Of a stretch of 13,507 bases of DNA, positions 50-13,507 are shown one piece after another. Each line of letters opens with the position of its first letter. Within the stretch, counting starts at the first letter, position 1. The position numbers and the translations under genes were made by a program. Under the pieces are notes generated by a model, which was not told the origin of the DNA, made no database searches, and was given only the letters and a program-made list of their open reading frames with translations. The DNA is from a virus: UHGV virus genome UHGV-0166527; one strand, given 5' to 3'.

Positions 50-2794
50 TCAAATCGCGTTCAGGTCTTTCTTATTCAACCATGCTTCCAGAGCGGCAAC
101 ACTGTGTGTAATTTCTTCGTGTGGGAGGGGGGCAGATAATGGTTGCTGCTCCAGTTGCGCGCATAGCTGGCTGGCGCTACGCATTCCCAGACTCGCGCAG
201 CTGCTTTTTAGCTGGTGCGCGGCACGTTTAATTTTTTCGCCGTCCTGCCTGGCGCGGGCTGCGTCTATTTCATCGAGAAGTGGCAGGGCATGTTGTTTAA
301 ATAATGTCAGCCATTCGCGAATACTCTCCGTCCCCATTAACTGAGCATCTTCATGGAGTTGCGATACATCCAGCGATTGATCTTTATTGGTTTGCAGTTG
401 GAGATAGTGCGCCAGTAACTGACCGAGCACTTCACGCGGCACTGGTTTAGGGATAATCCCGCGAAAGAGCGAACTGGTTCGCTGGCGCAGCGTTTCGTCG
501 ATGACATGGGCGCTAAAGCCAATCAAAACCAGCGACGGATATTGCTGTACCAGTTGTCGGGCAAGGGTAATGCCGTCGATATCCGGCAGATCAAAATCCA
601 CCAGTGCGGCAGCAAATGGTTCACTATTTTGCAGCGTTTCTATCGCCTGCGCGGCATTGCCAACAGCCACGACCTGCGCACCACTGGTGTTTAGCATCTC
701 AACGGTAATTCGCTGGGTTAGCGGGTTATCTTCAATTAACAGCAAACGTAAACCGTCCAGACGTACCGCCTGATTGACTGTTTTTGGCACGGGGGCAGTG
801 GCAACACGTAACGGCAAGCGTAAACAAAAACAGCTTCCAGCCCCCGGCGTGCTGGTGGCGCTCAGTTCGCCGCCCATCGCCTGAGCCAGACTGCTACTGA
901 TAGTCAGCCCCAGCCCGGTGCCGCCGCGTTTGCCGCTTACCTGAACAAATGGCTGGAATATTTCTGCCAGTTTCGCGGGATCAATACCGCAGCCGCTGTC
1001 TTCCACTTCGACCAACCATTGCTCGCCATCAGTGCGACTGCGCAGGACGATCTGCCCCTCGTCAGTGAAACGCACGGCGTTGCTCAACAAGTTGGTAATA
1101 ACCTGGCGAATACGTCGCGGATCGCCCATTAACGCGCTCGGTACATCGTTGGCAATTGCCGTTGCCAGGCGAATCGGGCGACCTTTCACCCGCCCGCTCA
1201 TTAATTGCAGGGTACTTTCCAGCAGCGGGCGTGGTTCAAAGGGTTCATCGCTGACCGAAACATTTTTGCCCCCCGCTTCGATAGCCGAATAATCGAGGAT
1301 ATCGTTAAGGATGGTCAGCAGCGATTCGCCGGAGTCGGTAATTGCCCGCAAATCATCACGCTGGGCGTTAAGTGCGGGGTTATCTGCCAGCAGTTGCGCG
1401 GTGCCGAGAATACCGTACAGCGGTGTGCGGATCTCATGGCTCATTGCCGCCAGAAACGCAGATTTTGCCTGGCTGGCTTTTTCGGCTTCCGCACGAGCCT
1501 GTCGATGTTCTACCACCAGTTCCTGTAATTCAGCCGTGCGCGCTTTTACTTGTGCCGCCAGCTGTTCGCGCTGGCGATTCAGCGCATGAACGCTGCTGCG
1601 AAACGCATCCATCAGCCGCCCGATAGTATCCAGCTCCCGCACGCCAGCGGTTTCCGGGAAAGGGGAGTCGATATCACCGTCCAGCAAGCGTTGCAGCGCC
1701 TGCGTTTGTTCAGCAAGTGGACGTGTGACAGAGCGATAAACCACGCGCCAGAGGATCAGAATCAGTGCGCAAAGTGAAACCATCCCCAGCAATACCAGGC
1801 TGTATTGCCCGCGTGCGCTGGCTTTTTCCAGATGCGCCAGTCCATGTTGATTACGCAGCTCAATGGTGTCGACCAGCTGACTGACTTCGCTACTAAACTG
1901 CGCAAACTGGGCGATGTTATTTTGGGCGAGAGTGTGCAGGTGATTGCTGATTTCACTGTCCTGCTGATACAGCGCCAGCAAATCGCTATATTGGCTAACG
2001 GTAGTTAACGTTGTTGCGACCTGAGCACGAACTCCCGGATCTTCAATGCGTATTTGCCGACGTTGCAGAATTTTCACCGCATTATTGAGCTGCTTTTCCA
2101 GCGTTGGCGCATTTTTCTGGATCTGTTCCAGCCCCAGATTCATCACCATTTGCTGCACCCGCAGAGCACTAAGGCGCAGTTCATTCATCTGGTTAACATA
2201 CTCAAGATCGATATCAATCAGCCTGTCGAGTGCGCTTTCGGCGGCCTGACGCTGATGTTGTTCGATCAAATCGTAAATCCCGGCCTGGGTAGCTCCGGCG
2301 GAGGTGGCCGCATTATTCGCCTGACCTTGCGCCAGGCGTGCGATTTCATCGGCGGCGGCGACTATCTGCTGACTGAGTTGCTGTTGTTGCTGGCGCAGTT
2401 GCAAACGCTGCCCCACCAGCTCCCCTTGCTGACGTAACGAACGGGAGATCTCCTGCTCCTGTTGTTCAATAGCGGTGGTATCAAAACCTTGTTCCCGTAA
2501 TGCTTGCAGCAACGCATTAATCTTCAGGCTTTGTGCGGTGAGCATTCGCCCCTGCGCCTGCCACATCTTTTCGTTATCGGCACTGGTCAGGTTCTGCGCG
2601 GCGAAAAGTTCCCAGGCGCTGGCTTCGCTCAACTGGCGCGCCATATTCATGGTAGGAATCAATGCCTGAGTGTTGTCTTTTTCCACCTGGCTGATAAAGC
2701 GCAGGTTGTACCATCCCACCAGGGTACTGGTCAGGGTTAACAGCGCCATCAGGGCAAAGCCCATCCAGAGCCTTCGGGTCAGGGTTAAATTCAC
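50..2794 (-). CDS. torS: Hybrid sensor histidine kinase TorS (trimethylamine N-oxide two-component sensor), complete 914 aa
   Basis: 914-aa ORF with N-terminal TM segment, HAMP-like region, histidine-kinase H-box (MSHEIRTPL), ATPase motifs (GTGLGL), receiver domain ([10 protein letters not shown]) and C-terminal HPt region; length and N-terminus [19 protein letters not shown] match my recollection of E. coli TorS. Confidence 0.93.
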
Positions 2795-2888
2795 GGTCGG
2801 TGCACTTAAGGTGAATAAGTTGTATATTTAAAATCTCTTTTATTATCAATGAATTAATGTAAGCAGGTCATTATTAGTCAAAATAAAA
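2795..2888. other. Putative attL (bacterial arm / core / P' arm) between torS start and int stop; AT-rich with arm-type-like motifs (AGGTCATTAT, TAGTCAAAAT)
   Basis: 94-bp AT-rich spacer directly adjacent to the 3' end of a lambda-family int; motifs resemble lambda Int arm-type sites (CAGTCACTAT); exact core not identifiable without attR. Confidence 0.4.
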
Positions 2889-3962
2889 TCATTTGTCGAT
2901 TTCAATTTTGTCCCATTCCCGTCCACGGCTGTCCCTATACCGCGCCGCCATTGAATCTGATTTATGCCCGAGAAGACGTTGAGCAAACTTATCGCCAATC
3001 TGGTTCCGGTATAGCCTCGCTGACAGGCTACGCAGTTCATGGAATGTTGGCGGGTTTCCATCAAATGAGAGTCCAGATGCATTTCTCGCCTTTGTAAAAT
3101 ACTTTGATACTGTTTTCGGGGAAAGCGGATCGTGATGCTTTGATGCGATTATAGTTTCACTGCTGCTGGCCTCCCTGCATTTTTGTAGTGTATCAGCCAA
3201 TGAGATATTGAGCGCGTCAATCGTTAGCGTCAGCGGAATGGCGAGCTTAGCCCCTGTTTTACTCTGCTCAATGTGAAGATGGTTGTCGTTTATGTCTGAC
3301 CATTTCATTCTGCACAAATCGCCCACTCTCTGCCCTGTAACGACAGCCAAATCCATTGCCAGCCTCAGCCAGATTGGGAGAGGTTCGGCTGCATGGTAAA
3401 TCGCGACATACTCATTAGCTGTCAGCCTTGAGCGCCTTACTTCTGACTTTGCTGTGCGGGTTGCTGTTACCGGATTCGTTTCCACATGCCCCTCGGCTAT
3501 TGCCTCACGAAAAACGTCAACAAGGGTTGACCTGATTAATTTTGCGGAAGCTGCTTTACCTTCTGCTACGTAGGTGTTTAGCATTGCTGCCACCTCTTTC
3601 GTTGATATGTCATTGAGCGGTTTGTCCGGCAATTTTCTTCGAATCGCCCTGATTTTGCTGGCGTAGTCGAGTAGAGTTTTCGGTCTGATACCCCTCTCGC
3701 TGAGGATTGTTTCATATCGGTCAAGCCACGCATGAAGAGTGATTGCGTCAGCGCCTTTAATCCTGTCTATCAGTGACTCACGCCTGTTCTCGGATAGCAA
3801 CTCAATATTGGCCTGAATAGCCTCTGAAACTGCTATCCTTCTGTCTCTGCCTAATCCGAACTCTTTACCCGTCCTTGGGTCCCTGTAGCAGTAATATCCA
3901 TTGTTTCTTATATAAAGGTTAGGGGGTAAATCCCGGCGCTCATGACTTCGCCTTCTTCCCAT
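2889..3962 (-). CDS. int: Tyrosine integrase, lambda Int family (357 aa)
   Basis: N-terminus MGRRRSHERRDLPPNLYIRNNGYYCYRDPRTGKEFGLGRDRRIA and C-terminus RGREWDKIEI closely match recalled lambda Int; catalytic motifs TGQRVGDL, HELRSL, LLGHKSD, ARYRD present. Confidence 0.95.
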   Translation of the reverse strand: MGRRRSHERRDLPPNLYIRNNGYYCYRDPRTGKEFGLGRDRRIAVSEAIQANIELLSENRRESLIDRIKGADAITLHAWLDRYETILSERGIRPKTLLDYASKIRAIRRKLPDKPLNDISTKEVAAMLNTYVAEGKAASAKLIRSTLVDVFREAIAEGHVETNPVTATRTAKSEVRRSRLTANEYVAIYHAAEPLPIWLRLAMDLAVVTGQRVGDLCRMKWSDINDNHLHIEQSKTGAKLAIPLTLTIDALNISLADTLQKCREASSSETIIASKHHDPLSPKTVSKYFTKARNASGLSFDGNPPTFHELRSLSARLYRNQIGDKFAQRLLGHKSDSMAARYRDSRGREWDKIEIDK

Positions 3963-4158
3963 TTCTGATCCTCTTCAAAAGGCTACCTGTTACTGGTCGA
4001 TTTAAGTCAACCTTTACCGCTGATTCGTGGAACAGATACTCTCTTCCATCCTTAACCGGAGGAGGGAATATCCTGCATTCGCGCACCCATCGACGAACTG
4101 TTTCAAGGCTTCTTGGGCGTCGCTGGCGAGCGTTCCACTCCTGAAGTGTCAAGTACAT
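3940..4158 (-). CDS. xis: Excisionase Xis (72 aa), 3' end overlapping int start
   Basis: MYLTLQEWNARQRRPRSLETVRRWVRECRIFPPPVKDGREYLFHESAVKVDLNRPVTG.LLKRIRNGKKAKS is essentially lambda Xis; ATG at 4156-4158 chosen over the longer in-frame ORF start at 4248. Confidence 0.9.
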   Translation of the reverse strand: MYLTLQEWNARQRRPRSLETVRRWVRECRIFPPPVKDGREYLFHESAVKVDLNRPVTGSLLKRIRNGKKAKS

Positions 4159-4170
4159 CGCAAAGTCTCC

Positions 4171-4184
4171 GCAATTACACGCAA
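4171..4184 (-). promoter_or_regulatory. Putative CII-binding site (TTGC-N6-TTGC) of the pI promoter just upstream of the xis ATG
   Basis: Minus-strand sequence TTGCGTGTAATTGC immediately 5' of xis, as in lambda pI; the transcript would start inside xis. Confidence 0.5.
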
Positions 4185-4265
4185 GAAAAAGCCGCATTGA
4201 TGCGGCGATGGTAGGTCTGGATATCATTGAGCAATGAACAGGCCTCATCGAGTGTGAGGCTGTAG

Positions 4266-4610
4266 TTAGTCCTTGCGTAGCTCGCTGATTCTTCTGTAAG
4301 TCTCTGGTGCTTTGTTCCCGTACGTCTTCATTTCAGACTTCAACAGAGCAACGAGGGAATCCCATTCGTTGAGGATTCCTTTGAATGCCGGAACGCGCTT
4401 TGCAACCTTGTCGAATGAATCTCTGATTTCTGGAATCTGCTCAACAAGTGCAACGCATCGCCGGAAATCGGCTACGTCATGTGGAGCGCCGAAGTGATGA
4501 CCATAGATATTATTTTTCAGTCCACATGCGATTGAGGCAAGAGTTGCGCTACTGATGCCGACATCGCCAGTCGATTGCCATTTCAAAACCTTCATAGCCA
4601 AATCTGACAT
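4266..4610 (-). CDS. Hypothetical phage protein (114 aa)
   Basis: ORF with ATG at 4608-4610 preceded by GGAGA 6 nt upstream; no recognised family. Confidence 0.6.
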   Translation of the reverse strand: MSDLAMKVLKWQSTGDVGISSATLASIACGLKNNIYGHHFGAPHDVADFRRCVALVEQIPEIRDSFDKVAKRVPAFKGILNEWDSLVALLKSEMKTYGNKAPETYRRISELRKD

Positions 4611-4621
4611 TTCTTGTCTCC

Positions 4622-4648
4622 ATAAAACAAAACTCGCTGTAGCGAGTT
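4622..4648 (-). terminator. Intrinsic terminator (minus strand): stem AACTCGC / loop TACA / GCGAGTT followed by TTGTTTTAT
   Basis: 7-bp perfect stem and U-rich tract read on the minus strand; the U-tract abuts the RBS of the 114-aa gene. Confidence 0.55.
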
Positions 4649-4768
4649 CAGATAAAAGAAATCCCCGCGAGTGCGAGGATTGTTATTGTCTTTGCTTTGT
4701 GCATTTGTCGCACTTTCGGCACCATCCAGATAGGCACATCCGTCCGCAATTAACACATATAGGCCACA

Positions 4769-5047
4769 TCATTTTTCCTCTTTTGGTTTATGAATCTGAA
4801 TGGTCATGCCGCTTTGAGTGGTGGCTACAACGACAGAACCAGGCTGAAGGCTGTTAAGATTGAATGCTTCGTAAAACGAATCCAATGCCAGTGCTTTTTT
4901 ATTCTTTCGGTTCCACCAACGCCATCCCTTGCTACAGGCTACACTGACAATCCACTGTCCACTCCTGTAAGCCATATAAAACCAGATGAGCAAAACCTGA
5001 AGGAAGGCTATCCAGTCAATAATCGTATATTTCGCGAAGGAGTCCAT
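4769..5047 (-). CDS. Small predicted membrane protein (92 aa; hydrophobic N-terminal segments, tryptophan-rich juxtamembrane region, soluble C-terminus)
   Basis: ATG at 5045-5047 with AGGAGG 7 nt upstream and TGATG overlap with the upstream gene stop; hydrophobic stretches YTIIDWIAFLQVLLIWFYMAY and WIVSVA. Confidence 0.55.
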   Translation of the reverse strand: MDSFAKYTIIDWIAFLQVLLIWFYMAYRSGQWIVSVACSKGWRWWNRKNKKALALDSFYEAFNLNSLQPGSVVVATTQSGMTIQIHKPKEEK

Positions 5048-5259
5048 CACTTTACCTCCTGCGCCGCTTTGATGATTGCAGCCAGGCAATTCTTGCACGG
5101 AACCTGAAATGAACCCTGCTCAATGCTCAACAGTGCATGCTGAGCATCCTGAAAAAGCCAGTCTGAAAATTGTGGTACATGTCCGCACCACGTCTCTATT
5201 TCATGCTTTGCAAGCTTGGCGCCGTCACGATAGTCATATTTGATAATGTGCTTACTCAC
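5047..5259 (-). CDS. Hypothetical small protein (70 aa), GTG start
   Basis: GTG at 5257-5259 preceded by AGGAGGTGAAGCC; N-terminus SKHIIKYDY is paralogous to the next gene upstream. Confidence 0.5.
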   Translation of the reverse strand: MSKHIIKYDYRDGAKLAKHEIETWCGHVPQFSDWLFQDAQHALLSIEQGSFQVPCKNCLAAIIKAAQEVK

Positions 5260-5273
5260 GGCTTCACCTCCTG

Positions 5274-5531
5274 CTACTGTGATGCTGGCTGATTATCGTT
5301 AACGTATGCATCAGGAAGCAGATACTGCTTAGCCATCCAGTTATCACACTTCATTTCAGTAATGTATTTTGGCAGTTCACCGTGCTGACAATTGAATAGC
5401 CACCACTGGTCACCCATGCTTTGAGGAATAGCGCGCTCATACGTGATACCAAGCTCGCGAATTACTTCTTGCGGGTGCCTGCTTTCTCCTGAATAAGCAG
5501 CACCCATACAGTCATAGCGTAAGTGTTTCAC
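5274..5531 (-). CDS. Hypothetical small protein (86 aa), GTG start
   Basis: GTG at 5529-5531 preceded by AGGAGGTGAAGCC; N-terminus KHLRYDC; the ORF-track 116-aa version (start 5624) is an in-frame extension lacking an RBS. Confidence 0.5.
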   Translation of the reverse strand: MKHLRYDCMGAAYSGESRHPQEVIRELGITYERAIPQSMGDQWWLFNCQHGELPKYITEMKCDNWMAKQYLLPDAYVNDNQPASQ

Positions 5532-5535
5532 GGCT

Positions 5536-5652
5536 TCACCTCCTGCACAGGCTGAAAATAAACGATGTGATTGCCAAATCCTGAATTGCTGTAATTGCCA
5601 GCATCCAGCCATAAATGCTTTCACTGAAATGCCATGCTAGTGCTGTAATCAC
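5536..5652 (-). CDS. Possible small hydrophobic peptide (38 aa, VITALAWHFSESIYGWMLAITAIQDLAITSFIFSLCRR), GTG start overlapping the stop of the 405-aa gene
   Basis: Hand translation; GTG at 5650-5652 within GTGA overlap, preceded by AGGAGGTTAAGCC; not in the ORF track because it is under 60 aa. Confidence 0.35.
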   Translation of the reverse strand: MITALAWHFSESIYGWMLAITAIQDLAITSFIFSLCRR

Positions 5653-6866
5653 GGCTTAACCTCCTGAGGCGGTTCTGGTAGAGACATCCAGTGAGTTACG
5701 TCATCCAAGATATTTCCTGATAAATACGTGAAAGCTCTATATTTTTTGTAATCAATTGGATTTACAACCCAGTTCCAATATGCGGCCACGATTTCACCTT
5801 GACTAAATGCCAGTAACATTTTGGTGTCTTCCGGCATTCGATCACTACAGCTTATCCAACCATCCGGAGTTACCGGAGAATTGCCATTTACCAAGTCAGC
5901 TCGAACATATAGCGTGTCATCATGGTGCTGATTGTGGCTGCACCACGTTAATTCGCTTAACTCGCCATCTTCTGGCCATACTCCAGCTGTTTGCAGCCAG
6001 ATATGGGCTGGCGCATCTTGGCAAGGTGTATTAACTGGCAACTTGTAAGTTTGGCTTACAGGTTGGCTACCCTGAAGCATGGCAGCGCGGCAGGCATACT
6101 CAACGCCCTTAACTGCATCTGCGCAGTAGTTATAGCGATTGCATTCCACTAATTTCCGTTTGAGTTTTTCAATTGCCTGCGCGACATCAGCCTGTATTAC
6201 AGGAACTGGCGGAACGGCTGTTTGCTCTCGAACGTCATTAGTCGCTATCGGTTCTGCTGCCAACTGGCTGGCATATTTGTTAATGGTAACGATAAGCTCT
6301 TGCTCAGCCTCATCCAGACAATCACCGATACCTCGCCTGTCACCGTCAAAATCATCGAAATCGGCACGAATCTTGGCAACCTTCAGGATTGCGGACAACA
6401 CCTCACTAGGAATTACCGGATAGTTGGTTGATGTTTCCGCGATTTCCCGAAAATTATTGGTTGACGAATTCTTGTTTTCCCGAAAGTTTCCGGACTGAAG
6501 CATGGCGGCGCGGCAGGCGTTCCAGCCATCTGCGTAACAATCTCTGTGTGTCTTGAAATATGTCACCGCCCTTGGTACATCGTTTACGTCTATTTCATCC
6601 GGCACAACCGGCGCAGGTGAGTCAGCATAAACAGGAATAACGTCCGGTTGCTCTTTATTGCTTTCATCCGTTAAAGCCAAGAATAATTTTCCGGCCGGAT
6701 GTTTGAAAATATAAGCAACTGGTTCTGCTTCCAGCGATGCCAGCGCCAACTTGAACGCCTGAAGCTCAATGGCACTGTTGGTATCCAGTCCAAACGGTAA
6801 TTCATCACGATTGGCTTCGTATTCAGCGATAGTTTGCTTCAGCCATTCTTTGGTTAGTTCAGCCAT
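5649..6866 (-). CDS. Phage early-region protein (405 aa) with an internal duplicated motif (ACRAAMLQ) and a C-terminal region reminiscent of DUF551-type phage domains
   Basis: ATG at 6864-6866 (MAELTKEW) chosen because the upstream ATG at 6917 overlaps the preceding gene and lacks an SD; family assignment is from memory and uncertain. Confidence 0.6.
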   Translation of the reverse strand: MAELTKEWLKQTIAEYEANRDELPFGLDTNSAIELQAFKLALASLEAEPVAYIFKHPAGKLFLALTDESNKEQPDVIPVYADSPAPVVPDEIDVNDVPRAVTYFKTHRDCYADGWNACRAAMLQSGNFRENKNSSTNNFREIAETSTNYPVIPSEVLSAILKVAKIRADFDDFDGDRRGIGDCLDEAEQELIVTINKYASQLAAEPIATNDVREQTAVPPVPVIQADVAQAIEKLKRKLVECNRYNYCADAVKGVEYACRAAMLQGSQPVSQTYKLPVNTPCQDAPAHIWLQTAGVWPEDGELSELTWCSHNQHHDDTLYVRADLVNGNSPVTPDGWISCSDRMPEDTKMLLAFSQGEIVAAYWNWVVNPIDYKKYRAFTYLSGNILDDVTHWMSLPEPPQEVKP

Positions 6867-6870
6867 ATCC

Positions 6871-7323
6871 CTAATTCCCCTTGATGCTGACTTTGACGCC
6901 AACCTTGCGAATCTCATCGGCGCATCTGTTCACGATACTCCGGTGAAACTCACAAAAAATTTTCGCCGACTGCGGCCCTAATGGGTGAACATCGTGCGCA
7001 CGCGGCAGTACAACCTCCCGCGCCTCCATGTCAGCAATCCGCTTGTCTTTGGCTTCCAGCTCATCCAGCAGCGCCAGCACGGTAGCTGGATTGGCTGCGG
7101 CGATGAATTCAGCATTGGCCTGCTGTTCTATTTGGAAATCTTCATCGAAACCGCTTTCAGGATGCGCTCCTTCAATTCTGCAAATGGGAATATATCCAGC
7201 AGCCTCGCGATGAATTAGCGCATCATCACCATCAAATCGGCCCTTTCCATATTCGAGCGACCACTCGCCACACGTTGCTTTTTCTGCCTTAGCACGCAGT
7301 GCCTGATAGTCAATCTTGCTCAC
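6871..7323 (-). CDS. Hypothetical phage protein (150 aa), possibly Ead/Ea22-like; GTG start
   Basis: GTG at 7321-7323 preceded by AAAGGAGG 6 nt upstream; N-terminus MSKIDYQALRAKAEKATCGEW resembles recalled Ead/Ea22-like annotations. Confidence 0.55.
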   Translation of the reverse strand: MSKIDYQALRAKAEKATCGEWSLEYGKGRFDGDDALIHREAAGYIPICRIEGAHPESGFDEDFQIEQQANAEFIAAANPATVLALLDELEAKDKRIADMEAREVVLPRAHDVHPLGPQSAKIFCEFHRSIVNRCADEIRKVGVKVSIKGN

Positions 7324-7627
7324 TGGTTGCCTCCTTTGCTGTGCTTTCTAACTTCTGAGTGGTTGTATCAAACTCAAACAACTTAACCACGTCATCAAAC
7401 AGGACATAATCGCCATCAGAATCTTCAGTCATGTCAGCGCCACAATCCTGACCGAACGAGTCACAACCATCCATATCAAGCTCGTATCGCTTGAGTTTTG
7501 CGATATTTGATAAATTCAGCGCCAGTACAGCAAGGTCATAAACCTCTTCGACTGTATACCCTGCGCCATGCCCATACATTTCAATACGGGATATGATTTC
7601 TTCTACACGTTGCTTTGTTATTGCCAT
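7310..7627 (-). CDS. Hypothetical acidic phage protein (105 aa)
   Basis: ATG at 7625-7627 preceded by GGGAGGTGA; stop overlaps the next start. Confidence 0.6.
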   Translation of the reverse strand: MAITKQRVEEIISRIEMYGHGAGYTVEEVYDLAVLALNLSNIAKLKRYELDMDGCDSFGQDCGADMTEDSDGDYVLFDDVVKLFEFDTTTQKLESTAKEATSEQD

Positions 7628-7989
7628 TTTTGCTCACCTCCCTGTTCTTCCAGAAAAATACGCATAGCCTCAAGCATCTCTTCGGTGTCATACGGTGATA
7701 ACTTGTCACGCAGGATGTGTTCAATGCTGTTAATGAACTTGCGGATTGCTTTGCGTTCAATTTCAGCCAGGACAGCGTCGGTGGTTGGAGTCCCTTCAAC
7801 CTTCAGCCCTATAGGGGCCAGGTAATCCTTCAGCCCCGCATTCTCCGCAGCCAGCGCCGCGCATTTAGCTTCAAGTTCAGCAAATTTACGCACCAGATAT
7901 TCAGTGTTTGTTTCGTTCACCTTTAAATCTCGTGGGATGCATTTACCTTTCAGAAATCCATCCATCTCAATTAGTGTCATTTGTTTCAT
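7618..7989 (-). CDS. Hypothetical phage protein (123 aa)
   Basis: ATG at 7987-7989; ATGA overlap with the upstream gene stop (translational coupling). Confidence 0.6.
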
Positions 7990-8168
7990 TTCTTCCCACT
8001 CCGCAACATCGCATTCAGATATTTGTTTTGATTCACTGATGGAAAAGAATTTCTCTTAAGCAATTCCTCTCTCGATGGCATTGGCTTTACGCGTTGGCGA
8101 ATAATCATTTCTGCCGGAAGAATGCCGGGATTGTATGCAAGTCCTCTCATGGTAAATTCCTCAGTCAT
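7986..8168 (-). CDS. Hypothetical small protein (about 60 aa; start uncertain, alternatives at 8183 or 8300 TTG)
   Basis: ORF in frame with ATG candidates at 8166-8168 and 8181-8183; no clear SD; bounded by coupled neighbours. Confidence 0.35.
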
Positions 8169-8454
8169 TACTGATAGCGCCATAGCGTGAGCGGTAATTA
8201 CGCAGGCGCGGGTCAATTTCAGGGAAGTGGGTATATGTGGCTTTGCGGAATGGTCGGATTGATGTCTGGTAAATTCGCTCGCGTTCTTCTTTCTCTGCAA
8301 GCCATATACAGTGGCGAAATTCCTTTTCCTTTTTCGTTTCCTGCGGTAGCGACATTATCCGGTTGTAGTTTTTTCTGAATTTATCCAGCACCTCCGATAC
8401 GGAATTGCCGGAACAGCGGCGCGGGTCATCCGCACCATACAGAGGCGCTGGCAT
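8161..8454 (-). CDS. Hypothetical phage protein (97 aa)
   Basis: ATG at 8452-8454 preceded by AAGGA 7 nt upstream; the ORF-track start at 8475 is a TTG. Confidence 0.5.
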
Positions 8455-8477
8455 AATGGAATCCTTATTTTGCAAAT

Positions 8478-8861
8478 CTAGAAGGGAATTGAATCGTCGT
8501 ATTCAGGATGATTTTGATGATTGCTACTTTGCTGCTGTTGGCTGTTTCCTGAAGTTGCAAATCCAATCTTTGCATTCAGTAATTCAAGATTGATTGATTG
8601 ACCATTTTGCCCCTGATAAACATCAACCCTGATGTTTTCTCCGGTAATTTCAACAATGCCACCTTCAACAAGAACACTACGGTAGTAATCCGCTTGCGCT
8701 CCCGGCTTGGCAAATACAACGGCGCTGTAGTTTGTCCATTCTTTCTTTTTTGTCTGGCGATCGTAATACTGAACGCCAGCACGGATGTTGAATCCGATAT
8801 TTTCCCCGGCCTGAAACTCTCTTGCGGGCTTGTTTAGTCTTACAGTAATCGAATGTGCCAT
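8478..8861 (-). CDS. ssb: Single-stranded DNA-binding protein, phage SSB-like (127 aa)
   Basis: OB-fold-like core and C-terminal acidic tail ending DDSIPF (compare E. coli SSB DDDIPF); ATG at 8859-8861 overlaps erf stop (TAATG). Confidence 0.75.
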   Translation of the reverse strand: MAHSITVRLNKPAREFQAGENIGFNIRAGVQYYDRQTKKKEWTNYSAVVFAKPGAQADYYRSVLVEGGIVEITGENIRVDVYQGQNGQSINLELLNAKIGFATSGNSQQQQSSNHQNHPEYDDSIPF

Positions 8862-9466
8862 TAAGCAGCCGCTCCTTCTAATTCGTCTCGTCTGATGTTG
8901 TAAACGTCCTGCGCTTTGTGCTGCTCCGGTGTGCCTTCGAGCATCTTCCACGCTTTGGCGAACGCCTGTTTAAGCTCTTCTACGGTGTTTTTCTGCATTG
9001 CTGCGTCAGTGAATGCTTTTAGAACCTGTTCAGGCGTAGGTGATGGTTTTGATTGCTTTGCTGCTGCGTTCTGCTGATGTTTATGCTCGTCTGTATCTGC
9101 ATCTTTCGCATCATCAATGCCGAACAAACCATTGAGGCAATACTTGCGTGCATAAGAGCTTGTGGCTCCCGTAACTTGTGCAGAATCCATTCCTTTCTTG
9201 CTTTCTTCCTCTCGTGCAAGAGCGGTTGCTGTATGACTGTTTTCGCCATCAGTAATAGTTGCCGTGGCTTTCACGTAATACCGATCACCAATCAACACAA
9301 CTTCATCGCTGATTGATAAAAACAGACCATTCAGTAACGGCTTAACGCCTTCAAGAATATCTTCGCAGCTTCTGTATTTATATTTACCGAATGAGTTGTA
9401 CTGATTTTTTGGCGCGTTCAGATTCTCCTGAATGGCTGCCAGTCTTGCGTAAAATTCTTTGCTCAT
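8861..9466 (-). CDS. erf: Single-strand annealing protein, ERF family (P22 Erf-like, 201 aa)
   Basis: MSKEFYARLAAIQENLNAPKNQYNSFGKYKYRSCEDILEGVKPLL... closely matches recalled P22 Erf; ATG at 9464-9466. Confidence 0.85.
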   Translation of the reverse strand: MSKEFYARLAAIQENLNAPKNQYNSFGKYKYRSCEDILEGVKPLLNGLFLSISDEVVLIGDRYYVKATATITDGENSHTATALAREEESKKGMDSAQVTGATSSYARKYCLNGLFGIDDAKDADTDEHKHQQNAAAKQSKPSPTPEQVLKAFTDAAMQKNTVEELKQAFAKAWKMLEGTPEQHKAQDVYNIRRDELEGAAA

Positions 9467-9555
9467 ATGTTTGTTCTCAGAATGGACATGGCCCAAGGAA
9501 ATAACGCTGATTTAATACTTCAGTCTTTGCCGCATTTAAAAATACGCGAACACCT

Positions 9556-9726
9556 TCACGATCTCCCTTCTGGCGATACATTAACGCCTGCTGCGTGTAC
9601 ATGCGTCTCTGTAACTTGCTCTCCTTCACTGTGGTTGCAAGTGACATGAATATCTCCTTCGTTACCGATTAAATCTTTCATCTGACGAATGAATTCTTCG
9701 TCTGACCAGTTATCTGTAAAACTCAT
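9556..9726 (-). CDS. Hypothetical small protein (56 aa) in the arf-like position between kil and erf
   Basis: ATG at 9724-9726 overlapping kil stop (ATGA); position analogous to P22 arf but sequence not recognised. Confidence 0.45.
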   Translation of the reverse strand: MSFTDNWSDEEFIRQMKDLIGNEGDIHVTCNHSEGEQVTETHVHAAGVNVSPEGRS

Positions 9727-9875
9727 TTCCTGCGATACCACGGAAGGTTGATAGCTGATTTCATCGCTTTATTTGCTTCAAGCCACATTTTTGAATCACC
9801 AATAAATCTGGCTATTACTGCTTTGTTCTGTGCAGCACGAAGCATCTGGTGATTAATGGCTATTTCATTGCGCAT
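9723..9875 (-). CDS. kil: Kil-like host division inhibitor (50 aa)
   Basis: Hand-translated MRNEIAINHQMLRAAQNKAVIARFIGDSKMWLEANKAMKSAINLPWYRRK; shares the FIGD.KM core with recalled lambda Kil; GGAGG SD upstream; absent from the ORF track (under 60 aa). Confidence 0.6.
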   Translation of the reverse strand: MRNEIAINHQMLRAAQNKAVIARFIGDSKMWLEANKAMKSAINLPWYRRK

Positions 9876-9994
9876 AACGCCTCCAGTTGTTTCTTTGCTG
9901 CTCTGATTAATTGTTTAACTCGGCGTGATAATTCAGATTCGTGCGGGTAGAAAGCGGACATGACGCCGCTACCCGCGAGCTGAAAGTGCATCAT
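9860..9994 (-). CDS. cIII: CIII-like protein (44 aa, FtsH-inhibitor family)
   Basis: MMHFQLAGSGVMSAFYPHESELSRRVKQLIRAAKKQL... resembles the lambda CIII amphipathic core (SESLLERITRKLRDGWKRL); AGGAG SD 6 nt upstream of ATG 9992-9994; overlaps kil start as in lambda. Confidence 0.55.
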   Translation of the reverse strand: MMHFQLAGSGVMSAFYPHESELSRRVKQLIRAAKKQLEALCAMK

Positions 9995-10056
9995 GGGTAA
10001 CTCCTTATATTTGATTGCATAACGAAAATGCCTCTCGTGAAGCATTATTGGTATGC

Positions 10057-10080
10057 GGTAAAGCCGCGCTTGGCGGCTTA
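10057..10080. repeat. Copy 1 of a 23-24 bp intergenic element GGTAAAGCCGCGCTTGGCGGCTTA (contains inverted repeat AAGCCGC/GCGGCTT) overlapping the stop of the 138-aa gene
   Basis: Near-identical to 10517..10540; palindromic core. Confidence 0.6.
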
Positions 10081-10494
10081 TTTGAAGATGTCTATGAAAT
10101 CAAGAACTGATGATATTTCGTGGTTGAACGATTTTCTTTTGTATCTTTCTATCGCAGAATCCACCTGGTGTTTATAGTCATCGTCGTTTGAGTATTTAAC
10201 GAAGCATTCTATTGTCTCAGGCGTTACAGCTATAAGGCTCCACCAACCTTCATCAGATTGATATTCAAATCCCATGCTTTCAAGCCATCCAGCATATTTC
10301 CCTCCAGCATCTTGCCAGTGTGTCTTTTCTGCAAGGAAGCTGTTAACCGTCATATGTGCATCAAGGCATTTATCCAACTGTTTACCATTAAGTAGCCATG
10401 CGCTGACAGTTGCACATCCCAAATCAACTGATTGAGTAGAGATATTGAATTGGTCGTAATTATCTGGATTAACCAGGATATCTGTAATTTCCAT
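10078..10494 (-). CDS. Hypothetical phage protein (138 aa)
   Basis: ATG at 10492-10494 preceded by GGAGGAATT; no recognised family. Confidence 0.6.
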   Translation of the reverse strand: MEITDILVNPDNYDQFNISTQSVDLGCATVSAWLLNGKQLDKCLDAHMTVNSFLAEKTHWQDAGGKYAGWLESMGFEYQSDEGWWSLIAVTPETIECFVKYSNDDDYKHQVDSAIERYKRKSFNHEISSVLDFIDIFK

Positions 10495-10516
10495 AATTCC
10501 TCCGTCATTGGCAGGT

Positions 10517-10540
10517 GTTAAAGCCGCGCTTGGCAGTTAC
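10517..10540. repeat. Copy 2 of the 23-24 bp intergenic element (GTTAAAGCCGCGCTTGGCAGTTAC) overlapping the stop of the 82-aa gene
   Basis: Near-identical to 10057..10080. Confidence 0.6.
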
Positions 10541-10785
10541 TCTATTTCTTCTTCGAATGATTTTATTAGTCGGTCAATAACATCATCTGTTTCAATATCA
10601 TTTCCGTCTGATTGCTTTAATACGTCTATTGATTCTACGGCGGTAAACTCCATCGCTGTGAGAAACTCGACAATTGCACACCCAACGACATATCGTTCTT
10701 CATCTGTACGACATGAGATAAAAGAGCATTTAATTGCTGTTATTACTTTTTGTTTAAGCTCTGCAGGGTAATCAGTTTTTATCAT
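10537..10785 (-). CDS. Hypothetical small acidic protein (82 aa)
   Basis: ATG at 10783-10785 preceded by GGAG 6 nt upstream; acidic C-terminus (DGNDIETDDVIDRLIKSFEEEIE). Confidence 0.6.
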   Translation of the reverse strand: MIKTDYPAELKQKVITAIKCSFISCRTDEERYVVGCAIVEFLTAMEFTAVESIDVLKQSDGNDIETDDVIDRLIKSFEEEIE

Positions 10786-10798
10786 CGTTTACTCCGTC

Positions 10799-10826
10799 AA
10801 AAAAACTGCCCTCACATTGGAGGGCA
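10799..10826 (-). terminator. Intrinsic terminator (minus strand): stem TGCCCTC / loop CAATGT / GAGGGCA followed by seven U
   Basis: 7-bp GC-rich stem; the minus-strand U-tract corresponds to + 10799-10805 (AAAAAAA); lies just upstream of the 82-aa gene RBS. Confidence 0.65.
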
Positions 10827-10942
10827 AAGAAGATTTCCAATAATCAGAACAAGTCGGCTCCTGTTTAGTTACGAGCGACATTGCTCCGTGTATTCACTCG
10901 TTGGAATGAATACACAGTGCAGTGTTTATTCTGTTGTTTATG

Positions 10943-10970
10943 CCAAAAATAAAGGCCGACTATGCGGCCT
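10943..10970 (-). terminator. Intrinsic terminator (minus strand): stem AGGCCG / loop CATAGT / CGGCCT followed by TTATTTTTGG; the loop contains the stop codon of the 207-aa gene
   Basis: 6-bp GC-rich stem plus U-rich tract read on the minus strand; tL1-like position after the N operon proximal genes. Confidence 0.6.
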
Positions 10971-11583
10971 CGGAAGGAAGTCCAATCATCTTATTCAAAT
11001 CTTCTACCCGTAAAGCAGGAAGTGCTGTACTTGCTTTGTCTGCTTCTTTTGGTAGCAATTCTTTGCTTTCAGGCCAAACTTCAATAAGTCGCTTAACTGT
11101 TGTGACTGAGTTCAAAGCAGCCCATACATTTGATTCGATATCCTTTTTCTTGGCTTCAAGTTTTTGTTGCAATGCGCAGATTTCATCAAACCTTTTTGTT
11201 ATTTCGTGTTCTGCGTCAAACATGCATTTATCTTTGGTCGGAGTAGGGAGCAATATATCTTCGCCGTTGCCGTCTTTCCCATATGAATGCCATCCAACCC
11301 TTCTGCCAGATACAGTCAGATAAATCGAAGTAGAACGAACATCGCATGAGTAAAATGAACATCCCATCTTTTCAATTTCTTCACTTATAGCTACTAACCT
11401 GGATGATAACTGATCCACTTCATCAGTTTTCTTTTTACCGCCAAACGCAACAACCCTGGCGTCAAGTGCAAGCTGGTTCTTTAACCTTGTTACTTCTTCA
11501 AGTTCAGTGAAAACCCCAGACTTAATTAAAGCGTTACGAGCGATTTTCTCTTTCATTCTCGTAGTTAAGCGGATTGATGACAT
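10960..11583 (-). CDS. Hypothetical protein (207 aa) immediately downstream of N, upstream of the first terminator
   Basis: ATG at 11581-11583 (MSSIRLTTRMKEKIARNAL...) preceded by GAGAGGAA; soluble, no recognised family; occupies the ral/sieB accessory slot. Confidence 0.65.
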   Translation of the reverse strand: MSSIRLTTRMKEKIARNALIKSGVFTELEEVTRLKNQLALDARVVAFGGKKKTDEVDQLSSRLVAISEEIEKMGCSFYSCDVRSTSIYLTVSGRRVGWHSYGKDGNGEDILLPTPTKDKCMFDAEHEITKRFDEICALQQKLEAKKKDIESNVWAALNSVTTVKRLIEVWPESKELLPKEADKASTALPALRVEDLNKMIGLPSEAA

Positions 11584-11594
11584 ATTAATTCCTC

Positions 11595-11921
11595 TCAAAT
11601 AAGTGGTTTGCTGCCTAATTTCATTTTCTGGCGACCAACACAAGTCACACCCATTTCACTGCGTGGCTTGCTGTACCATGTGCGCTGATTCTTGCGTTCA
11701 ATACGTTGCAGGTTGCTTTCAATCTGTTCGTGGTATTCAGCCAGCACCGTAAGGTCTATCGGATTCAGTGCGCTTTCTACTCGTGATTTCGGTTTGCGAT
11801 TCAGCGAGAGAATAGGGCGGTTAACTGGCTTTGCGCTTACCCCAACCAACAGGGGATTTGCTGCTTTCCATTGAGCCTGTTTCTCTGCGCGACGTTCGCG
11901 GCGGCGTGTTTGTGCATCCAT
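11595..11921 (-). CDS. N: Antitermination protein N (lambda-type, 108 aa)
   Basis: MDAQTRRRERRAEKQAQWKAANPLLVGVSAKPVNRPILSLNRKPKSRVESALNPIDLTVLAEYH... matches recalled lambda N including the arginine-rich motif; AGGAGA SD upstream of ATG 11919-11921. Confidence 0.9.
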   Translation of the reverse strand: MDAQTRRRERRAEKQAQWKAANPLLVGVSAKPVNRPILSLNRKPKSRVESALNPIDLTVLAEYHEQIESNLQRIERKNQRTWYSKPRSEMGVTCVGRQKMKLGSKPLI

Positions 11922-12078
11922 CTGGATTCTCCTGTCAGTTAGCTTTGGTTGTGTGTGGGAGTCGTAGTCCTGAACGAAAACACCCCGCAATGGCACATTG
12001 GCAGCTAATCCGGATTCGCACTTCCGGCCAATGCTTCGTTTCGTATCACACACACCAAAGCCTTCTGCTTTGAATGCT

Positions 12079-12109
12079 GCCCTTCTTCAGGGCTTAATTT
12101 TTAAGAGCC
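12079..12109 (-). promoter_or_regulatory. nutL site: boxA-like (GGCTCTTAA, + 12101-12109) and boxB hairpin (GCCCTGAAGAAGGGC, + 12079-12093)
   Basis: boxB is identical to recalled lambda nutL boxB when read on the minus strand; boxA differs from CGCTCTTAA by one base. Confidence 0.75.
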
Positions 12110-12154
12110 TCACCTTCAATGGTGGTCAGTGCGTCCTGCTGATGGCTTAAAATT

Positions 12155-12222
12155 ACAAGAAAGATTGTATGTTGTAAACAAGAAATATTGTAAAAATGGG
12201 CGTAAAAAACAAAATCCATTGT
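12155..12222 (-). promoter_or_regulatory. OL operators (three 14-bp 434-type sites ACAA-N6-TTGT at 12155-12168, 12178-12191, 12209-12222) overlapping the pL promoter
   Basis: ACAAGAAAGATTGT, ACAAGAAATATTGT, ACAAAATCCATTGT; minus strand shows -35-like TTTACA and -10-like TAATTT with 17-nt spacing. Confidence 0.7.
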
Positions 12223-12272
12223 TTTTAAACGGAAAATAGTTTGTTTTTTGGTTATCGAGATTGAGGTGGGGA

Positions 12273-13507
<1,235 letters not shown>

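Follow-up and report, generated by a model that had tools for sequence, protein, structure and literature searches.

In the window (the whole 13,507-nucleotide stretch of DNA that was analysed), the 94-bp spacer at 2795-2888 between an integrase gene and torS constitutes, with a probability that we place at about 90%, a complete HK022-type attL of B-O-P' structure, by which a lambdoid prophage equipped with the HK022 integration module is inserted at the canonical attB of HK022, within the 82-bp torS-torT gap, with torS rewired to a phage promoter. The anatomy of this attL, its homology and its population frequency have been established here for 2795-2888. The original prediction, made from the sequence and holding that a prophage had inserted against the torS start codon and could thereby alter torS expression, is correct and already an established result, reported in 2019 and refined in 2026. 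As this story has been worked out for HK022 and for one natural lysogen, the window adds another instance and not a new concept; this instance has a different prophage mosaic, together with the A allele of attB described below.

Anatomy of the attL between int and torS

The gap between the stop codon of int (TGA at 2891-2889) and the annotated GTG of torS comprises exactly 94 bp (2795..2888), as had been predicted, and has a GC content of 27%, compared with 47% for the whole window. Its parts were delimited in a seven-sequence alignment comprising the window junction, the attL sequences of E. coli PSJ-23, of LF82 and of a Stx1a phage record, the attP of HK022, the unoccupied attB of BL21 and the attR of PSJ-23. 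The features of the attachment site and of the adjoining integration genes are as follows.

2802..2808, plus strand: B core-type Int half-site GCACTTA, of bacterial origin (attL/attB/attP/attR alignment)
2809..2815, plus strand: 7-bp overlap (crossover) AGGTGAA, the same in all seven aligned att sequences
2816-2822, plus strand: C' core half-site TAAGTTG, of phage origin, the first bases of the P' arm (att alignment)
2816..2888, plus strand: phage P' arm, 73 bp, 69/73 identical to HK022 attP
2844..2856, plus strand: IHF site (H'-equivalent) TATCAATGAATTA, a pattern match to the consensus WATCAANNNNTTR, colinear with TATCAGTAAATTA in HK022 attP
2865-2874, plus strand: predicted arm-type Int site, first of a tandem pair (P'1/P'2 equivalents), AGGTCATTAT, 7/10 of the lambda-family arm consensus
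2875-2884, plus strand: predicted arm-type Int site, second of the pair, TAGTCAAAAT, 7/10 of the lambda-family arm consensus
2889..3962, minus strand: int, HK022-type tyrosine integrase of 357 aa, directed outward towards torS, 350/357 (98%) identical to HK022 Int over the full length; matches phrog_7244 and phrog_1 (integrase)
3940..4158, minus strand: xis, excisionase of 72 aa, its 3' end overlapping the int start; phrog_629 excisionase, E = 6e-23

With the overlap at 2809-2815, the att core is 15-21 bp away from the annotated torS GTG on its upstream side, within the few tens of bp that had been anticipated, and the native sequence left upstream of the GTG amounts to 21 bp (2795-2815). For annotation, the prophage boundary is best placed at 2815/2816. 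An alignment with an unoccupied torS-torT region had been proposed together with the original prediction as its check, and in this alignment the homology of the window to unoccupied sites ends at approximately 2822, the core is AGGTGAA and the native promoters lie beyond the overlap. The annotation of the Stx1a phage records gives the core in another form, as an imperfect 15-bp duplication (cttaaggtgaataag and ctttaggtgaaaaag). This description was rejected, with the attP alignment giving the standard B/O/C' structure and accounting for both mismatches of the supposed duplication, the one at 2816 as the difference between the C' and B' arms and the one at 2808 as a polymorphism of the host attB.

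Lambda-family P' arms carry an IHF site followed by arm-type Int sites, and the same order is seen in the window. Relative to HK022, the arm has four base differences, at 2841, 2849, 2851 and 2864, two of which fall inside the IHF site. Both arm-type sites, which correspond to the arm-type-like motifs that had been noted in the AT-rich spacer, are unchanged in HK022, LF82 and PSJ-23, while in the Stx1a phage the second site is one base off (TGGTCAAAAT). The length of the HK022 P' arm has been given as 73 bp (PMC6814406), matching that of the window.

The sequence on the right of this arm is that of a prophage end, as had been proposed, with an Int 98% identical to that of HK022 followed by xis and a lambdoid early-left operon. 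At the DNA level, HK022, mEp235, Gally and several Stx1a-converting phages match the int-xis-att region (2795-4300) with 96-97% identity, and for the int region the identity to other lambdoid phages, HK97 and phage 434 among them, is approximately 76-78%. PHROG and Pfam matches assign to the minus-strand operon after xis DUF551 and Ea22-like proteins, abc2 (anti-RecBCD), ssb, erf, kil, cIII, an anti-restriction protein, an Nmad5-domain protein and N, and the cI repressor is of the LexA family, with HTH and S24 peptidase domains. Among the 5,426 complete E. coli genomes searched, coverage of window 2800-13507 nowhere exceeds 55%; taken whole, the prophage is a new mosaic in which the int-att module is shared, of the kind that is usual in lambdoid and P22-like phages. 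At its last position, 13507, the window is still within the immunity region, and it covers one prophage end.

Two further genes of this prophage were noted. The Nmad5 (nucleotide modification associated domain 5) protein is encoded at 10960-11643 on the minus strand (E = 1e-69), with the anti-restriction gene and N on either side. A 134-aa ORF at 12273-12677, also on the minus strand, has an ATGA start that overlaps the stop codon of the cI repressor (gtATGAtc) and an N-terminus resembling a signal peptide; its PHROG match is phrog_2651, of unknown function, and no Pfam match was found for it. Lambda carries rexAB at the place held here by this ORF, and on account of this position it is probably a lysogen-expressed moron, a prediction made by analogy.

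The insertion site, its frequency and the allele at base 2808

Yagil et al. are said to have placed attB HK022 between torS and torT in 1989. In unoccupied strains the two genes are divergent and only 82 bp apart, with the core lying 8-28 bp from the torS GTG in BL21. The idea that torS-torT is a known integration locus is well founded, as the region has been described as the attB of HK022 (PMC6814406) and as one of the standard integration loci of Stx1 phages (PMC10042803). It has also been reported that prophages at torS-torT occur in about 5% of complete E. coli genomes, always with an HK022-like int facing torS (PMC6814406). In the present search the junction was found in 191 of 5,426 complete E. 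coli genomes (at least 80% coverage of an 801-bp query), and exact junction 36-mers were found in 96 genomes with the A allele at 2808 and in 83 with the T allele.

This recurrence indicates that the junction is neither an assembly artefact nor a coincidence. An artefactual or chance adjacency of torS and the prophage was raised solely on the ground that the window holds one prophage end, and nothing was found in its favour. The 191 complete genomes with the same junction speak against it, as do the B-O-P' structure, which is exactly the one that HK022 attP and attB predict, and the matching attR of related lysogens (PSJ-23 and the Stx1a phage lysogen), where the remaining intergenic DNA stands beside torT and the same overlap links it to the phage P arm. 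The probability of an artefact is accordingly negligible, and an HK022-type insertion at attB is retained as the origin of the junction.

The closest junction to that of the window, with 99.8% identity, occurs in E. coli PSJ-23. The element concerned (locus L002, 20388-31600) is a degraded P22-like remnant of 11 kb between torS and torT, in which the Rad52-family and ejection-protein genes are truncated but attL, int, xis and attR are intact.

The last base of the B half-site, at 2808, is A in the window and T in K-12, BL21 and the HK022 lysogen. A post-integration mutation or an unusual crossover as the source of this A has been ruled out, the A allele being present in 1,535 unoccupied attB sites, compared with 3,017 that carry T at the same position. 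Both alleles occur in attL junctions, and the Stx1a lysogen shares the A. The occupied fraction is 5.9% for A-allele genomes (96/1,631) and 2.7% for T-allele genomes (83/3,100), in a sample so heavily biased to sequenced STEC lineages that no conclusion is drawn from the difference. With A at 2808 the B half-site comes to resemble C' (CAACTTA), a likeness that, judging from the sequence, may explain why this allele is compatible with integration.

On the torS strand, base 2808 corresponds to position -11 of P2torS, where the A allele turns the -10 hexamer TAAAGT into TTAAGT. An engineered A-11T change in MG1655 has been reported to eliminate P2torS activity in vitro and to lower torS-lacZ expression in vivo (PMC13644379). 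In the consulted portions of the cited literature no discussion of a natural polymorphism at this position was found, and the A allele is the only unreported element that is apparent in the window. It is tentatively suggested, at a little short of even odds, that the allele acts as a natural P2torS knock-out, and it might also modulate HK022 Int binding or the frequency of integration. Should it be functional, about one third of E. coli strains would naturally be without P2torS and have an altered TorS/TorT ratio.

Start codon, promoters and transcription of torS

The annotated torS gene is intact, and the position of its start bears on how the spacer is measured. Initiation at an ATG at 2764-2762 (minus-strand sequence GTGAATTTAACCCTGACCCGAAGGCTCTGGATG) would give a protein of 904 aa, and of the two starts only this ATG, which lies 30 bp further downstream than the annotated GTG, has been reported to support translation (PMC6814406). 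The annotated GTG at 2794 is probably wrong or not used. With the ATG at 2764 as the start, the functional distance from the int stop to the torS start is 124 bp, and the predicted distance of 94 bp stands with respect to the GTG but not with respect to the start that has experimental support (PMC6814406).

The native promoters of the intergenic region have been dissected as P1torS, P2torS and PtorT, with P2torS embedded in attB HK022 (PMC13644379, 2026). According to the legend of Figure 1B of that study, the intergenic DNA extends over -95..+23 relative to PtorT, -40..+78 relative to P1torS and -82..+36 relative to P2torS (PMC13644379). These coordinates were placed on the BL21 locus (L001), for which the window coordinate equals the L001 coordinate + 1001, with the following result.

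50..2794, minus strand: torS from the annotated GTG, 914 aa, intact (ORF list); Pfam TorS_sensor, HAMP, HisKA, HATPase_c, Response_reg and Hpt
L001 1856: PtorT transcription start site (TSS), from the legend in PMC13644379
L001 1838: P1torS TSS, 42 bp upstream of the P2torS TSS and on the torT side of the core, from the same legend
L001 1796, which is window 2797 (A), or 2798 (G), minus strand: P2torS TSS, from the same legend
2797..2809, minus strand: P2torS remnant, -10 hexamer 2809-2804, TTAAGT here and TAAAGT in K-12 and BL21

Published papers place the P2torS TSS three bases upstream of the torS GTG. The overlap falls between the -10 element of P2torS (2809-2804) and its -35 element, and beside torS only this -10 element and the TSS stay. 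With the promoter positions taken from PMC13644379 and the attR of related lysogens, the P2torS -35 element has been displaced with torT to the attR side, and so have P1torS and the IscR operator; on that side the PtorT -35 element, which overlaps the B' half-site, is kept intact. The claim that the native upstream region of torS had been replaced is thus upheld for these promoter elements, but not for the 21 bp of native sequence that are kept next to the GTG.

The consequences of such an insertion have been studied in HK022 lysogens of MG1655, in which torS-lacZ expression is raised and torT-lacZ expression is unchanged (Carey et al., 2019, eLife, PMC6814406). The prophage cuts torS off from the P1 promoter and the IscR operator and ablates P2, and an omega terminator at attL abolishes torS transcription (PMC6814406). 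[quoted passage not shown] It is because of this phage-encoded outward promoter that torS goes up and not down in the HK022 lysogen; the promoter has been located within the P' arm or the adjacent int 3' end, although by the authors' own account it has no clear -10/-35 elements (PMC6814406). Aerobic torCAD expression is off in the lysogen and bet-hedging is abolished, while anaerobic induction is kept, and the natural lysogen NRG 857C behaves as MG1655(HK022) (PMC6814406). The altered torS expression and trimethylamine oxide (TMAO) control that had been foreseen have therefore been demonstrated experimentally for HK022 lysogens (PMC6814406), with the authors' warning that not all lysogens need behave alike. 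The same inference on torS has been drawn for phage Gally in LF82 (PMC9928086).

By analogy with the HK022 and NRG 857C lysogens, torS is likely to be up-regulated in the lysogen from which the window derives. Compared with HK022, the P' arm is 69/73 identical and the int 3' end is conserved, although the four base differences in the arm might affect the outward promoter, and a sequence scan found no terminator-like site between int and torS (2795-2888). The path from phage DNA into torS is thus unobstructed, and torS is full length with all its domains. A consensus promoter scan over 2600-4400 returned two hexamer pairs facing torS, compared with 1.8 expected by chance. At this chance level the pairs are no evidence of a promoter, and they are listed as candidates only.

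2899-2870, minus strand: candidate promoter hexamer pair TCGACA-18-AATAAT (consensus scan, chance level)
2871-2842, minus strand: candidate promoter hexamer pair ATGACC-18-GATAAT (consensus scan, chance level)

It could be argued instead that the insertion silences torS through loss of its promoters, a polar effect that would leave the lysogen blind to TMAO, considering that the displaced DNA includes P1torS, the IscR site and the P2torS -35 element and that the leftover P2 -10 element carries T at -11, the change that kills P2torS when engineered (PMC13644379). This outcome was tested and rejected for HK022, where anaerobic torCAD induction is normal and torS-lacZ expression is higher in the lysogen (PMC6814406). 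The near identity of the window P' arm to that of HK022 (69/73) and the terminator-free path from the arm to torS also argue against silencing, which is considered very improbable.

Another source of torS transcripts would be read-through from int, with pI/pL transcripts crossing attL and driving most of the expression in place of a dedicated P'-arm promoter. The gene is directly upstream of torS and in the same orientation, with no terminator-like structure in 2795-2888 between them, and upon prophage induction antiterminated pL transcripts are expected to cross attL. While the omega-terminator experiment cannot tell the two sources apart (PMC6814406), the -231..+28 fragment still gives a sigma-70 transcript with its TSS in the prophage in spite of lacking the int promoter, and int is repressed in lysogens (PMC6814406). 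As the main source of torS expression, read-through is unlikely; it is a secondary possibility, especially on induction, and a dedicated outward promoter is the preferred reading.

Under the reading of a dedicated outward promoter, the following state of torS would be expected in the lysogen of the window. An HK022-type Int, together with IHF, exchanged strands within AGGTGAA at 2809-2815 and formed the junction, with the chromosome on the left of the crossover contributing the B half-site, the -10/TSS remnant of P2torS and torS, and the phage on the right contributing the P' arm, int and xis. The gene has thereby lost P1torS (its main promoter), the IscR operator and the -35 element of P2torS, all of which stay with torT at attR, and its transcripts would start at a sigma-70 promoter that faces outward in the phage DNA adjoining attL. 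TorS levels would be raised and independent of IscR, with torT expression normal. TorS in excess and without TorT would dephosphorylate TorR, so that aerobic torCAD expression and bet-hedging would be lost and anaerobic induction would be retained.

The junction is a naturally occurring case of host regulation rewired in cis by a prophage, in a divergent promoter region of 82 bp. The phage would swap the weak, oxygen- and IscR-controlled promoter of a sensor kinase for a constitutive one of its own, and so change a respiratory bet-hedging strategy. The regulation of torS in the source strain should not be assumed to be wild type.

Comparison with known systems

The attL of lambda has the order B-O-P', with H' and P'1-P'3 in the arm and int adjacent. 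The window shares with lambda this architecture and site order, including an int that ends just past the arm-type sites, and differs from it in the overlap, AGGTGAA instead of TTTATAC, and in the chromosomal site, torS-torT instead of gal-bio.

A closer resemblance is found with Gally (LF82 and NRG 857C) and with the Stx1a phages of O26:H11 and other STEC (PMC9928086; PMC10042803), which have the same junction position and the same integration module (96-97% DNA identity) but differ in cargo and in their late regions. The portion of the prophage inside the window shows no stx gene. The torS of LF82 has been annotated as a frameshifted pseudogene (locus L004, NC_011993, 1-593), unlike the intact torS of the window, and if the frameshift is genuine, transcription of torS from the prophage would not matter in LF82.

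The most direct counterpart is the HK022 attL in E. coli K-12 lysogens, which has the same attB position, the same overlap AGGTGAA and the same C' half-site. The int-xis order and the outward orientation towards torS are also the same, with Int identical at 350/357 residues and the P' arm at 69/73 bases. The differences lie in four P'-arm bases, in the B half-site, which in the window ends in A and not in T (2808), and in the genome behind the integration module, which in the window is not that of HK022 but another mosaic, to which Nmad5 and the recombination module abc2-ssb-erf belong.
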